Below are positions 2,247 to 12,276 of a stretch of 64,000 bases of DNA, one piece after another. A program made the translations under genes and the position numbers. The notes under the pieces were generated by a model. It worked only from the letters and a program-made list of their open reading frames with translations. It was not told where the DNA came from and searched no databases. Origin of the DNA: Candidatus Uhrbacteria bacterium (GTDB lineage Bacteria > Patescibacteriota > Patescibacteriia > UBA9934); assembly GCA_903827265.1 (NCBI GenBank), contig CAIKHN010000024.1, forward strand, positions 3,332-67,331, read 5' to 3'. The stretch's first letter is position 1. Every line of letters starts with the position of its first letter.

Positions 2247-3404
2247 ATGTTCGCTCCTCGATTCTTTCACGTGTCATACAAATACATTCTCAAGCCACTC
2301 GCGTTTCAATTCGATCCAGAAACCGTTCACGATGCCATGATCAGATTCGCGTCGAGCCTTGGGCAATTCCCATTCGCACAGCGCGTACTCTCAGCATGTT
2401 TCGCATACACAAACCCAGCGCTTGAACAGACGATTCACGGCATACATTTCGCGAACCCCGTTGGCCTCAGCGCAGGATTCGATAAAAATGCAGAAATCAT
2501 CAACGCGATCGCCGCGGTCGGATTCGGATTCACTGAGGTTGGATCGATCACCGGAGAACCGTGTACCGGGAATCCAAAGCCGCGACTATGGCGCCTGCCA
2601 AAGTCCAAAGCCATCATGGTGTGGTACGGACTGAAAAATGACGGCTGCGTTGCAATCGCGAAACGTCTTCGCTATACGCAATTTCCAGTTCCTGTCGGCA
2701 CAAGCATCGCGCGAACAAATGACGCAACAACGGTAGACATCCACGCCGGAATACACGACTACACCAAAGCATTTCGCGAGCTTTCAAACATCGGCGCGTA
2801 CACAACCGTCAACATTAGCTGTCCAAACACGTGCGGCGGCGAGCCGTTCACATCGCCGGAACGCCTGGAAAAACTCCTTACAGCACTTGATGAAATCCCA
2901 AGCGCAAAACCGATCTTTCTTAAACTTCCCGCCGATATTTCATTTACTGACGCCGATCTTCTCGTTGCAGTCGCACGCAAGCATCGTGTGCACGGATTTG
3001 TGGTTTCGAATCTCACAAAACACCATCACGCGCAAACAATTCGGCAACACGAAATTACTCCAGCAATGAAAGGAGGCATTAGCGGAGAACCAACGCGCGA
3101 TCTTTCCAATGCGCTTATTGCGCACCTCTTTCGCGCGGTAAGAACCGAATACGTTATTATTGGCGTTGGAGGGATTTTTTCAGCGAGTGACGCGTATGAC
3201 AAAATTCGTCATGGCGCGAGCCTCGTCCAACTCATTACCGGGCTAATCTTTGAAGGACCTCAACTCGTCGGCGAAATCAACAACGGTCTTGCAAAACTTC
3301 TTATAAAAGACGGGTACACGAATATCTCGAACGCCGTCGGTTCTGCCGTAACGCCATTGGAACTATGTCAAAATCAATGCTCGTCATCGCAGTCAGTGGA
3401 GTAA
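2247..3404 (+). CDS. pyrD: dihydroorotate dehydrogenase (quinone), class 2
   Basis: Translation has a class-2 DHODH N-terminal extension and conserved blocks FANPVGLSAGFDKN, GFGFTEVGSIT and NISCPNT. Confidence 0.85.
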   Translation: MFAPRFFHVSYKYILKPLAFQFDPETVHDAMIRFASSLGQFPFAQRVLSACFAYTNPALEQTIHGIHFANPVGLSAGFDKNAEIINAIAAVGFGFTEVGSITGEPCTGNPKPRLWRLPKSKAIMVWYGLKNDGCVAIAKRLRYTQFPVPVGTSIARTNDATTVDIHAGIHDYTKAFRELSNIGAYTTVNISCPNTCGGEPFTSPERLEKLLTALDEIPSAKPIFLKLPADISFTDADLLVAVARKHRVHGFVVSNLTKHHHAQTIRQHEITPAMKGGISGEPTRDLSNALIAHLFRAVRTEYVIIGVGGIFSASDAYDKIRHGASLVQLITGLIFEGPQLVGEINNGLAKLLIKDGYTNISNAVGSAVTPLELCQNQCSSSQSVE

Positions 3405-4786
3405 TTTTCCTGCTTACCGCAACCGCAATCAGCGAACGTCTTACAAACACCGCGTCCGTCGTACCGTCAACACCGTCAGCGTCCTCACCTTCGCCCGTTC
3501 GCGAAGCTCCTTCGTCAAAATATCTTGAAACAGGCTACCATCTTGGATTGAATTTTTTCGTGTTTCCGCGGAATGCGACCGACGATACAGCACGCGCCTT
3601 GACCGCGCCCGAAACCGCGACCCAACTGCAAACGCTCCACGCAGAAGTCGCACGACAACTCACGAACGGCGACACGCTGTGGAGTGCAGTAGAACCAAAA
3701 GCAAACGCTTGGAACTGGGCAACGACCGACAGCATGTTCCAATCATTTTCGTCATCAGTAGAACCAATCGCCGATCTTTTTTCGATGCAATATGCATCTC
3801 CGAATGCACCATGGAACATATCTGGACCATTTGAAAAAACAATGACCGCTGAAGCCGAAACATACATCCGTACTGTTGTTCGACGATACAAAGATTCGGT
3901 GACGTATTGGGAAATCGGCAACGAAATGGATCACTGGAAACTTTTAGATCCAGGAAACCTCGAAGCGATTCATGGCAAATTCTCAGACGTCACAGAAAAA
4001 CTCCCAACGCTTCTTCCGTCCGATGGGTACAGTCCGGCAGAACAAGGCGCGTTCTTCGCTGCAACGGCAAACATTGTTCGAGAAGAAGATCCTGACGCAA
4101 TCCTTGTGATGCCAGGTATGAGTGCCGCGCAGGATTATCAGCTCAACACCTGGCTCCCTGGCTTCGTTGCCGGAGCAGGAACTGACGCATTCGACATTGT
4201 GAACTACCACGACTACGGATCGTGGAGCGACATGGAAGGCAGGCTTTCTGCGCTGAAAGCGTCAATGCAAACGCTCGGCATTGCAAACAAGCCAATCTGG
4301 CTTTCTGAAACGGGAAGCAGTGCCGATACAACGCTCACCCAACGAACAAATTATCCGAACAGCACCGTTACTCAAGCAGCAGACGTGATCCGCAGACTCC
4401 TCATTGCACAAACGAATGGAGTCAGCACAGCCATTTGGCACACGTTTTACAGCTCACCAAGTACAGGTACGAACACCTGGAGAGCGTACGGCCTCCTAAA
4501 CGAACATGGCGAGGAGTCTCCGTCATACGGCGCTTTCGCCACACTTGCGGAGGTGTTTCCCGCAACGTCAGTCGAAGACATCGCGACCACTCCCGGGACG
4601 TATATCGTCAAAATCACCTCGTCTCACGACAACGTCGCCTACGCAGTTTGGGGCTCCGGAACCTGGACGATTCCAGAAGGGATCGCCGAGGAATACACGA
4701 TTTCATCAACAGGAGTCGCCAAAAGCGCTGCTCCAGCCGAAGGCTCAACGGTGACGCTATCGCCGATCCCGCAGCTTTTTCGCTAA
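3365..4786 (+). CDS. secreted/membrane-anchored glycoside hydrolase, clan GH-A (GH5-like TIM barrel), putative
   Basis: N-terminal hydrophobic anchor. YWEIGNEMD fits the GH-A acid/base NE motif and WLSETGS fits the nucleophile TE(x)G motif. Confidence 0.5.
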   Translation: MSKSMLVIAVSGVIFLLTATAISERLTNTASVVPSTPSASSPSPVREAPSSKYLETGYHLGLNFFVFPRNATDDTARALTAPETATQLQTLHAEVARQLTNGDTLWSAVEPKANAWNWATTDSMFQSFSSSVEPIADLFSMQYASPNAPWNISGPFEKTMTAEAETYIRTVVRRYKDSVTYWEIGNEMDHWKLLDPGNLEAIHGKFSDVTEKLPTLLPSDGYSPAEQGAFFAATANIVREEDPDAILVMPGMSAAQDYQLNTWLPGFVAGAGTDAFDIVNYHDYGSWSDMEGRLSALKASMQTLGIANKPIWLSETGSSADTTLTQRTNYPNSTVTQAADVIRRLLIAQTNGVSTAIWHTFYSSPSTGTNTWRAYGLLNEHGEESPSYGAFATLAEVFPATSVEDIATTPGTYIVKITSSHDNVAYAVWGSGTWTIPEGIAEEYTISSTGVAKSAAPAEGSTVTLSPIPQLFR

Positions 4787-10346: not shown

Positions 10347-10624
10347 GTTCGCTTCGTTTCCGATAGGAGATGAACGTACAGATACAGAGAACGTCAGAAT
10401 TCAGATGTTGTCTGTAGATATCTGGAGGCGGAGAGATGGTTATTGTCCACGGGTAAATTCGTGCACTCTAACCGACACGCCAGCGGACGACAGGGTTTCG
10501 ACTCTCCCGTTCCACAGAGGTGGGTCATGGCGTACATCAACTTCGGCTGATCACTTCGCCCGATCCCCTCCAGTATTGTATAGAGAACACAAAACTCCCA
10601 GGCCATGGCCTGGGAGTTTTGTTT
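10347..10624 (+). ncRNA. candidate small RNA of unknown class, about 280 nt
   Basis: Bounded by a near-consensus promoter upstream and a perfect 30-nt palindromic terminator plus T-run downstream. The only ORF across it (10288..10626) begins before the promoter, ends inside the terminator, has no RBS and an R/W/P-rich translation. Confidence 0.4.
10591..10624 (+). terminator. intrinsic terminator (perfect 30-nt palindrome plus T-run)
   Basis: aaaactcccaggccatggcctgggagtttt followed by gttt. Confidence 0.7.
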
Positions 10625-10633
10625 GAACCTGAT

Positions 10634-11520
10634 GGGGTCAGGTCTTGAATCTATGCATTTTTAAAACTCTAAAAACAGTTGAATAATGCAAGTGAAGATG
10701 TCGTGCGACAACTGATTGACTATATCCGCATTGCTCAACAGCAAAACGTATAACGCTATTTCTCTCGTCTCTCTTCAAGCGCCGAGAAAACATATCTTCT
10801 AAATTCGGCCGCCCGATCATTCGTTGCTCTCTTGGGATTTCTTCACCAATATCGTCGACTTGCCAATTTTCCGCTTCGAAAATAAATTGTTCAGAACCAA
10901 GAATTTGATGTCTTGCCTCCTTGAAAGGCGAGAGCGGCGGTATCTTTTCAAGCACAAAATCCAGATATCGTTTCTGAGCCAACATTTGATTCGTCGAAAA
11001 CCGAATAAGAATATCGCTGATTGTGAGAAAATTGCGTTTTCTCGCCAATCCGGCAGTCTGACGAAAGCTACTCCAATCGTACGCAGCCGGTTCTTTTACA
11101 ATCCCTGCTCGAACAGGATTCAGCACGATATACCGTGCAACAGTGACAAGATAAAAAATATTCTCTATAAGAAAGGCCTTGAATCTTCCTTGAAACAAAT
11201 GGCCTACGCGCCGATATCGTTCGTTGATTTTTTGCGCATATGTTCCGTTAAGCTGCCGCATACCCTCCGAAAGATTTCCATCAGGTGTTTCAATGAGCAA
11301 ATGATAATGATTCCCCATCAAACAATATGCATGACAAATCCAATGATGAGTATGAATCGTTCTATCAAGGATTCTTAAAAATAAGCGTCTGTCTGCGTCA
11401 CAAAAATATATGTCCTTTTTCTCGTTTCCACGAACCGTTATGTGATATGTAGCTCCCGGGAATGCTATTCGTAATGGTCGAGACATAATAAAAAATGCAT
11501 AAATTCAAGACCTGACCCCT
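10634..11520 (-). mobile_element. IS200/IS605-superfamily or RAYT-like element carrying a single HUH (Y1) transposase gene, flanked by inverted repeats
   Basis: A 17-bp perfect inverted repeat ggggtcaggtcttgaat at 10634-10650 matches its reverse complement at 11504-11520. The repeat extends to about 29 bp with one mismatch (…ctatgcattttt / aaaaatgcataaatt…), and a single transposase ORF sits between the two ends. Confidence 0.6.
10638..11486 (-). CDS. HUH-family Y1 transposase (IS200-like / REP-associated tyrosine transposase-like) with C-terminal HTH extension
   Basis: HuH motif GNHYHLLIETP, a conserved ARYIVLNPVRAGIV block and catalytic-Tyr region. The C-terminal roughly 100 aa is HTH-like (FAVEQCGYSQSVVARHLHLHYSTVFRVLK). 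Confidence 0.75.
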   Translation of the reverse strand: MSRPLRIAFPGATYHITVRGNEKKDIYFCDADRRLFLRILDRTIHTHHWICHAYCLMGNHYHLLIETPDGNLSEGMRQLNGTYAQKINERYRRVGHLFQGRFKAFLIENIFYLVTVARYIVLNPVRAGIVKEPAAYDWSSFRQTAGLARKRNFLTISDILIRFSTNQMLAQKRYLDFVLEKIPPLSPFKEARHQILGSEQFIFEAENWQVDDIGEEIPREQRMIGRPNLEDMFSRRLKRDERNSVIRFAVEQCGYSQSVVARHLHLHYSTVFRVLKMHRFKT

Positions 11521-12276
11521 TCACTTCATCCACTCCTCAATCTTCCCAGCCGTGTGCCAGGCGAGTTCGAGTGTTGCTCTGCATACATCGGCCATGACTT
11601 GCGAACGGATTTCGATGGCGACCGGTGTGTTGATGTACGACAAGAGCAACACGCGGTCGGCGCATACGCGAATCTCGCCGGATACCGCAAGGACCGAACG
11701 CGGAATAATGCGAACATCATGACGCGATGTACTCAGGTCGTCAGGGAAGCGATTCGCAATCACAATGCTTCGAACATTTTTTCCGGATTGCACGTTCGCC
11801 CATCGCCGAACATCGGCAACCATCGACGACACTTCGTCGCCGAATAATTGAATGATGTCGTCTGGGAGCACCATGAATTCTCGTTGCGATGCAATGATCG
11901 CTTCTGGCCCCTCAAGGTAACGAACCGCCGACGTCGGACCACCACCAATCGAAACGAGCGCCTGTAAATTTGGAAGTACCGACTCAAAACGTTCAAGTCG
12001 CATTGCGCAAAGGCGATGTTGTTCCTCAAGTTTTTGCCTTATCGCAATAGGCGACTCCAATACGAATATCTTCTCCTTTCTCGCCATTCGAACTCGTGCC
12101 AATCCGTGATCAACAAGCGACATCATCATGTCGTGCGTCGTGCCACGAGCAAGAGAAAACTGCTCACTAACCTCGCGAACTGTTAGCTCTCCCCGTTGTG
12201 CAAGGAGGACATACGTCTCCGCGATGCGACCGGAAAATCCGAGAATCGTGAGCTCGTCAATAAGTTGCGTCATCAT
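11521..12276 (-). CDS. TrmB-family transcriptional regulator
   Basis: N-terminal winged HTH (LAQRGELTVREVSEQFSLARGTTHDMMMSLVDHGL) followed by a TrmB-like C-terminal domain. Confidence 0.6.
   Translation of the reverse strand: MMTQLIDELTILGFSGRIAETYVLLAQRGELTVREVSEQFSLARGTTHDMMMSLVDHGLARVRMARKEKIFVLESPIAIRQKLEEQHRLCAMRLERFESVLPNLQALVSIGGGPTSAVRYLEGPEAIIASQREFMVLPDDIIQLFGDEVSSMVADVRRWANVQSGKNVRSIVIANRFPDDLSTSRHDVRIIPRSVLAVSGEIRVCADRVLLLSYINTPVAIEIRSQVMADVCRATLELAWHTAGKIEEWMK

Follow-up and report, generated by a model that had tools for sequence, protein, structure and literature searches.

A probable single-gene TIRtron between a TrmB-family gene and its terminator in a Candidatus Uhrbacteria genome

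A 64,000-nt stretch of Candidatus Uhrbacteria DNA (assembly GCA_903827265.1, contig CAIKHN010000024.1, positions 3,332 to 67,331; hereafter the window, in whose positions all coordinates are given) carries, directly downstream of a gene for a TrmB-family regulator, a gene for a Y1 HUH transposase enclosed by inverted repeats. The locus raises the question of what kind of element this is, and whether it is a mobile element or a resident gene. RAYT-like genes flanked by terminal inverted repeats have been named TIRYTs and the corresponding units TIRtrons (Di Nocera, De Gregorio & Rocco 2013, BMC Genomics 14:522, PMC3733652). We found that the element, about 900 bp long (about 10624-11523), is real and intact, and we consider it probable that it is a mobile single-gene TIRtron, encoding a TIRYT of TnpA_Y1 subclass 2.1, which inserted between the stop codon and the terminator of the TrmB gene. 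The element type has been described before, and the present copy is a fairly ordinary example of a barely studied class.

Anatomy of the element and its insertion site

The transposase gene and the TrmB-like gene both lie on the minus strand. In the direction of transcription, the features of the locus are as follows.

11521-12276, minus strand: TrmB-family helix-turn-helix (HTH) regulator gene, 251 aa; upstream co-oriented neighbour, outside the element
11520-11523, minus strand: TGAA just outside the 5' repeat; the TrmB-like gene uses its TGA as stop codon
11491-11519, minus strand: terminal inverted repeat on the gene-proximal (5') side, with the minus-strand sequence GGGGTCAGGTCTTGAATTTATGCATTTTT; 4 nt separate its inner end from the ATG
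10638-11486, minus strand: TIRYT gene, 282 aa, with Y1 HUH domain, middle helical region and HTH-like domain
10634-10662, plus strand: gene-distal (3') terminal inverted repeat, GGGGTCAGGTCTTGAATCTATGCATTTTT; encodes KMHRFKT and the transposase stop
10624-10633, plus strand: outer tail beyond the 3' arm, TGAACCTGAT (ATCAGGTTCA on the minus strand)
10589-10622: bidirectional intrinsic terminator, a perfect 17+17 palindrome flanked by A and T runs that lies past the end of the transposase gene; in empty-site relatives, it comes 1-8 nt after the TrmB stop

A repeat search of the window returned inverted arms of 33 nt at 10630-10662 and 11491-11523 that were 94% complementary. Counted from GGGG, the arms are 29 nt long and match at 28 of the 29 positions (17, one mismatch and 11); the outer 17-mer GGGGTCAGGTCTTGAAT is perfect at 10634-10650 (plus strand) and 11503-11519 (minus strand), which bears out the 17/29-bp inverted repeats of a first-pass annotation of this DNA. 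Both arms begin GGGGTCAG, and the inner part of the repeat reads TCTTGAATCTATGCAT. Even with three mismatches allowed, GGGGTCAGGTCTTGAAT occurred only twice in the window (0.06 occurrences expected by chance), and the 11-mer core of the repeat had no further copy there at up to one mismatch. The GC content of the element was 0.38-0.44, compared with 0.50-0.53 in its flanks.

The first-pass annotation placed the end of the repeat directly against the stop codon of the regulator. The stop codon does lie at 11521-11523 (TCA, which is TGA on the minus strand), and the gene that it ends matched Pfam TrmB (32 bits; cutoff 25.6). The arm, however, ends at 11519 and not at 11520, T 11520 being the single base between the 5' arm and the stop codon. 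The symmetry of the repeat runs on through the TrmB stop, with TGAT before GGGG on the left and TGAA before GGGG on the right. On the minus strand, the locus reads ...TGGATGAAGTGA A (GGGG...CCCC) ATCAGGTTCAAA CAAAACTCCCAGG... Further, (C/G)TGA(A/T) precedes every 5' arm of the sub-lineage (the window and the loci that we labelled L089, L101, L083, L087 and L084), and the flanks before GGGG in these six loci are CTGAT, CTGAA or GTGAA. The TGA(A/T) outside the 5' arm either belongs to the repeat, as its outermost part, or is the tetranucleotide targeted by the element; by analogy with the TTAC of IS608, it may be read as a target or terminal tetranucleotide. On the other side, ATCA(T)GGTTCA follows the 3' arm in both the window and L101, despite different downstream genes, and the outer tail is missing at empty sites and common to the L101 element. 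Because the window and L101 share this tail with different genes downstream, the element extends about 10 nt past the 3' arm.

The surrounding synteny is shared with related genomes (DUF4012-MreB-GT4-TrmB-(site)-holB-BNR-RRF), and orthologous loci without the element were found, in line with the insertion proposed in the first-pass annotation. At the empty site of L082, where TrmB is 94% identical, the sequence reads ...TGGATGGCATAA/CCAAAACTCCCAGGCCATGGCCTGGGAGTTT, and the terminator palindrome directly follows the stop codon. In L095/096 and L097/098, the stop codon is followed by 3-8 nt and then by the palindrome. L099 and L100 also lack the element; the sequence shown past their stop codon is not the palindrome of the other loci. 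Since the palindrome stands right after the TrmB stop at empty sites, the element is an insertion that moved the terminator by about 900 bp. In a terminator scan, the sole terminator-like site downstream of the TrmB gene on the minus strand was that at 10622-10589, and two other, weaker sites lay inside the TrmB coding sequence.

It had also been suggested that the insertion altered the 3' end of the regulator or its terminator. The displacement of the terminator agrees with this. The C-terminus of the regulator, in contrast, is unchanged: element-free TrmB homologs of 50-65% identity likewise end in ...KIEEWMK, and TrmB was therefore not reshaped in the window genome. In L089, which has the element at the same site, TrmB ends ...SGMKKWEST and its TGA abuts the repeat; at the empty site of L095, a TrmB 89% identical to that of L089 ends ...SGMKQ. 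Judged from this pair of sequences, the 3' end of TrmB was reshaped by the element in this one relative.

The transposase and the conservation of its repeats

The 282-aa open reading frame matched Pfam Y1_Tnp (E 3.6e-12). In an alignment of 26 homologs, H60-Y-H62 (the HUH motif) and R118-Y119 were invariant, so that the HUH and tyrosine residues expected in the first-pass annotation (H60, H62 and Y119) are present; W138-S139-S140, 19 residues past Y119, was also invariant. When a profile of this alignment was compared with solved structures, the single match was E. coli TnpA_REP (4ER8), and the HUH motif and the YxxxNPV tyrosine motif of 4ER8 lined up with the HUH motif and tyrosine of the protein. 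Similarly, the AlphaFold model (pLDDT 84.7) had its best fold match in the PDB with 4ER8 (E 3e-7, target-normalised TM-score 0.77), followed by the IS200, IS608 and ISDra2 transposases. The model contains three helices at residues 239-279, and homologs carry precomputed matches to the HTH families PF13384, PF13936, PF13518 and PF13542. The C-terminal domain (about 239-279) is thus predicted to be a three-helix, HTH-like domain. With the Y1_Tnp match and these helices, the description of the locus as a single-gene, RAYT-like Y1 HUH element with a predicted C-terminal extension of the HTH type can be retained.

The protein search yielded at least 8000 scored relatives; among the matches listed, these were about 280-290 aa long and came mostly from Patescibacteria/Uhrbacteria, with some from Thermodesulfobacteriota. 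We examined 80 metagenome loci whose proteins were 45-60% identical to the window protein and sought inverted repeats around each gene. Repeats with the core GGGGTCAGGTCTTG flanked the gene in the great majority of these loci, and the core was present upstream of the homolog in 73 of the 80. The 5' arm stood 30-55 nt before the ATG in most loci, and the 3' arm overlapped the stop codon or came shortly after it. Many homologs end in ...FKT, ...NKT or ...GKT, which is encoded by AAGACCTGA within their own repeat. Termini so conserved around such diverged proteins are functional and not due to chance. Across the family, there was a weak preference for T/A outside GGGG and a period-7 signal in the repeats, and in 21 of the 80 loci further copies of the repeat lay close by, some of them as doublets of 49-92 bp.

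Two proposals about the repeats were rejected. The two heptamers after GGGGTCAGG (TCTTGAA TCTTGAC) were considered as co-varying paired HTH sites; locus-specific covariation was weak (3.52 versus 3.37 in shuffled upstream arms, and 3.23 versus 2.98 in shuffled downstream arms). Abutment on an upstream stop codon was considered as a rule of the family and was found in only 5 of 63 loci. A distance of 15 nt separates the repeat of L101 from its TrmB stop, which is further upstream than in the window, and overlap with a stop codon is therefore not obligatory.

Could the element instead be an insertion sequence of the IS200/IS605 type, with subterminal hairpins and an inverted repeat that is incidental? 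The Pfam Y1_Tnp match, the fold resembling TnpA of IS200, IS608 and ISDra2, and the TGA(A/T) before the 5' end, much as TTAC stands before IS608, are all compatible with such an origin. Nevertheless, we regard it as highly improbable. With its additional domains, the protein is twice as long as TnpA of IS200/IS605, and the conservation of the inverted repeat throughout the family shows that it is not incidental. Further, the element has no conserved subterminal hairpins, is not accompanied by a tnpB gene and is present as a single copy.

Folding of the ends as single-stranded DNA bears on another explanation, namely that the locus is a classical RAYT/REPtron whose flanking repeats are repetitive extragenic palindrome (REP) hairpins belonging to palindromic families of the window and dispersed as REPINs. 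The 3' end alone gave a 6-bp hairpin (ACCTGA/TGGGG/TCAGGT, z about -2) that uses bases of the outer tail plus the first bases of the repeat, and the 5' end gave no hairpin. REP-like hairpins in the arms were rejected because the two ends were inconsistent; arms without self-complementarity, with a weak hairpin at one end and none at the other, are not REPs. Three observations favour the RAYT/REPtron explanation: the protein marginally passes the equivalog cutoff of NCBIfam REP_Tyr_transpos (81.7 versus 80 bits), the closest solved structure is TnpA_REP, and short inverted, REPIN-like doublets of the same repeat (49-92 bp) occur in other genomes. In addition to the lack of self-complementarity, however, there is no GTAG tag and no further copy of the repeat in the 64 kb, and neither the terminator at 10589 nor the palindromes at 55508 and 56036 have any sequence in common with the repeat. 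The chances of this explanation are therefore very slight. The link drawn in the first-pass annotation between the element and palindromic families elsewhere in the window is not supported: the window contained no other copy of the core, and palindromes such as those at 55508-55546 and 56036-56074 are unrelated to the repeat in sequence.

These two palindromes are identical, GC-rich and 39 nt long (CACTCGCGCCCCGGACGACCCCGGGGCGCGAAGTCGTTT), and lie 528 bp apart. They are terminator-like and bracket a promoter-like site and a 128-aa open reading frame for a predicted membrane protein (55625-56011).

Re-use of the site and repeats at other loci

The two closest database homologs, among the matches listed, sit immediately after the TrmB gene in related genomes (P0002, 62% identity, L101/L102; P0004, 58% identity, L089). 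The identities of the proteins of the window to those of these loci are as follows.

MreB: 99% to L089, 98% to L101
GT4: 80% to L089, 71% to L101
TrmB: 64% to L089, 45% to L101
TIRYT: 58% to L089, 62% to L101
holB: 86% to L089; not present in L101
BNR: 83% to L089; not present in L101

The window element and the L101 element have identical repeats (GGGGTCAGGTCTTGAATCTATGCATTTT), and the repeat of L089 differs in its inner part (...CTTGCATTGTGCAT). Unlike the repeat, the host genes GT4 and TrmB place the window nearer to L089.

A domesticated RAYT-like gene, vertically inherited, immobile and with a host function, would explain the locus differently: the repeats would be binding or regulatory sites, and the empty sites would be secondary deletions. 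The gene is present in one copy per genome and at the same locus on all 18 contigs with the exact protein, the two nearest homologs just described are at the same syntenic site, and TIRYT and the neighbouring TrmB have diverged to a similar extent (58-62% and 45-64% identity, respectively). Reportedly, Bertels et al. found RAYTs to be vertically inherited. However, five of the eight related loci are cleanly without the element, one of them with a TrmB 94% identical, and a vertical history would need several near-precise deletions. The GC content of the element is about 10 points below that of its flanks, the relationships of the repeat and the protein depart from those of the host genes, and identical repeats occur at other loci of a related genome. 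On balance, we consider domestication unlikely. The five clean empty sites, the relationships of the element that are incongruent with the host, and its divergent GC content favour repeated gain and loss of the element at a preferred site among close relatives over purely vertical descent.

Several points nevertheless weigh against a mobile TIRtron of subclass 2.1. The HTH_23 match of the C-terminal domain (E 5e-4, 20.2 bits) is under the Pfam cutoff of 24.6, the exact ends of the element are uncertain by about 10 nt, and a target duplication was not convincing at the junctions in the window. Across the 18 contigs carrying the exact protein, there is one gene copy per genome, and two repeat copies were seen in the window; current activity is therefore unproven. 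An old insertion that was inherited vertically could likewise account for the occupied site in the three related genomes. Finally, we infer the cleavage site, the strand specificity and the HTH target of the TIRYT, and the portions of PMC3733652 and PMC6006769 used here report no biochemistry on any TIRYT.

Two observations on related copies may be added. A possible imperfect repeat, TGAAGA..AAAT, surrounds the L089 copy only. In L001 (Logan ERR4194639 contig, 3001-3855), the assembly breaks 6 nt past the transposase stop, inside the 3' repeat, which would fit a break in the assembly graph induced by the repeat or by presence and absence of the element.

The analysis established the anatomy of the probable TIRtron and its conserved ends, identified its catalytic residues and fold, and revealed both empty sites and repeated use of one site; a mechanism can be proposed in addition. 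By analogy with IS200/IS608 and TnpA_REP, the N-terminal HUH/Tyr119 domain would cut and rejoin one DNA strand at the strongly conserved GGGGTCAGG termini beside TGA(A/T), and the C-terminal HTH domain may bind the more variable inner part of the repeat. A scan found no promoter-like site upstream of the transposase ATG on the minus strand, and only 34 nt separate this ATG from the TrmB stop; read-through from the TrmB gene is therefore the most likely mode of transcription, and the transcript would end at the displaced terminator.

TIRYTs form a very large family, and the literature using that name, as far as it is represented in the two articles above, contains no biochemical study of them. 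The present locus is a clean natural experiment: among close relatives, the same site is found both occupied and empty, and three diverged alleles are present there. With a very short element whose ends are defined to about 10 nt, the substrate of the family, GGGGTCAGG next to TGA(A/T), can be tested directly. The locus further illustrates how, by borrowing the transcription and terminator of the upstream gene, an element of this kind can be accommodated silently between the closely spaced genes of a reduced Candidate Phyla Radiation (CPR) genome. For annotation, this part of the window holds one mobile-element gene plus an intact TrmB gene.

Copies of the repeat were also present away from transposase genes. 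Species-representative genomes were scanned with the 22-nt repeat pattern GGGGTCAGGTCTTGAATNTATG. The related metagenome-assembled genome (MAG) Patescibacteria H41-bin182_1 had 7 copies on four contigs, or 8 when the 11-nt core was used with up to one mismatch, the extra copy being a diverged partner of the L085 doublet; a Uhrbacteria MAG had one repeat pair. None of the pairs found by the scan in these two MAGs encloses a TIRYT gene. The sites are the following.

L083 6105-6827: AAA_33 kinase gene between repeats
L087 4249-4759: frameshifted NUDIX gene between repeats
L086 7459 to L084 26 (contiguous): HIT-like gene between repeats
L072 3674-4846: YhgA-like Transposase_31 gene between repeats
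L085 7314-7405: 92-bp repeat doublet
L088: solo repeat copy

In two repeat-bounded cases, the annotated start MGSGLESM... is supplied by the repeat.

The genes between repeats may be mobilised cassettes, or variable genes on either side of which repeats have inserted. That the HIT-like gene of MAG H41 is an imported mobile cassette was not shown: it is a resident gene, found at the same syntenic position in repeat-free relatives, where it is 60% identical and its flanking genes are 93-97% identical. Beside repeats, TrmB was 45-94% identical and MreB 97-99.7% (window, L082, L089, L095, L097, L099, L100 and L101); between L086 and L103, HIT and dCMP deaminase were 60% and 70% identical, versus 97% for ThyA/DHFR and 93% for CTP_transf. 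From these comparisons, the high divergence beside repeats suggests local allele replacement or diversifying selection. It is conceivable, although we would not expect it, that TIRYT-type repeats in Patescibacteria not only form the ends of transposase elements but also delimit single-gene units that can be exchanged. If this were true, a Y1 HUH enzyme would drive cassette-like allele replacement at preferred intergenic sites beside TGA(A/T), comparable to mobile insertion cassettes but operating through single-strand HUH chemistry.

The HIT-like gene of L103 is flanked by two direct copies, of about 75 nt, of a different palindromic repeat (CATTGCGAGGAG...GATTGCTTCGGC...CCTCGCAA(A/T)GAC; about 2400-2500 and 2945-3040). 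Because these repeats lie at the same spots, the intergenic spots attract another repeat family as well. Further, GGGGTCAGGTCTTGAAT was found in 11 contigs of the viral collection IMG/VR, with a TIRYT gene in none of the 11. In several of these contigs, it forms tandem or inverted clusters with the shared flank GTTCCCTAG. The sites listed are the following.

L115 2102-2234: GGGGTCAGGTCTTGAAT sites
L116 3395-3413 and 5888-5966: GGGGTCAGGTCTTGAAT sites
L108 1818-1865: GGGGTCAGGTCTTGAAT sites
L110 4197-4244: GGGGTCAGGTCTTGAAT sites

Beyond the terminator, the conserved non-coding stretch 10360-10590 was considered as a tmRNA/tRNA-like integration target and rejected, as ARAGORN and Rfam returned nothing there, even at E<=10. 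The stretch is present with or without the element and is therefore not an attachment site. Within it, 153 nt between the terminator palindrome and holB (10422-10574, minus strand) are almost invariant in five genomes (the other copies being L089 5078-5230, L095 3783-3935, L097 3758-3910 and L100 4105-4257), and the proteins beside them differ by 15-40% among those genomes. RNAalifold gave a closed multi-branch fold of 50 pairs, 5 of them compensatory, with one broken cell; its G-U pairs favour the minus strand, and Rfam had no match even at E<=10. It is possible that the stretch encodes a housekeeping RNA of this Patescibacteria clade that has not been described before. A single tRNA was found in the window, at 41696-41768 on the minus strand, and ARAGORN called it as tRNA-Asp with the anticodon ATC (A at position 34). 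It scored 46.3 bits against Rfam tRNA and has a mismatch in its anticodon stem. Provided that the call is correct, this anticodon is unusual for a bacterial tRNA-Asp.

Comparison with known systems

With TnpA of the IS200/IS605 family (IS608, ISDra2), the element shares the HUH/Y1 fold, a specific short sequence at one end and the absence of an evident target duplication. These insertion sequences differ in that they have subterminal hairpins and lack terminal inverted repeats; their TnpA has about 130-155 aa, they are usually present in several copies, and they often carry tnpB. The window element has conserved inverted repeats, no consistent hairpins and a 282-aa protein.

E. coli TnpA_REP/RAYT (4ER8; Messing et al. 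2012, PMC3479197) is the best match among solved structures in both sequence and fold. TnpA_REP, however, is 165 aa long and lacks the middle and HTH domains, and its substrate is GTAG-tagged REP hairpins dispersed in hundreds of copies. A RAYT/REPtron in the strict sense is flanked by such GTAG-tagged hairpins, and there is no GTAG at the window element.

The architecture of the protein agrees with TnpA_Y1 subclass 2.1. In the account of Quentin, Siguier, Chandler & Fichant (2018, BMC Genomics 19:475, PMC6006769), as excerpted here, 20 of 26 TIRYTs were placed in this subclass, whose members have a C-terminal extension resembling HTH_23, HTH_28 or Bac_DnaA_C, no REPs nearby and a short conserved serine motif just past the catalytic tyrosine. 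The likeness, especially to 2.1.2, consists of a Y1 core with a predicted C-terminal helix-turn-helix extension, the assignment being one of architecture and weak Pfam matches.

The first-pass annotation had treated terminal inverted repeats as anomalous for a Y1 transposase. Such repeats in fact define the published TIRYT/TIRtron class. According to the passages of PMC3733652 consulted, 26 TIRYTs were described from cultured organisms, including Acidobacteria, Stenotrophomonas and Pseudomonas; in part of them, the 3' arm runs into the end of the gene (labelled '3'ov' in figure legends); and the repeats of some genomes are also found singly, as dimers and in groups. The motif GGGGWSAS, quoted in both PMC3733652 and PMC6006769, is shared by many TIRtron repeats, the majority group. 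The present element differs in its host, which belongs to the Patescibacteria (CPR), and the repeat was compared over this 8-nt motif only. It resembles the published TIRtrons in that a Y1 HUH gene lies between inverted repeats that are not REPs, GGGGTCAG fits GGGGWSAS, and the gene ends within the 3' repeat.

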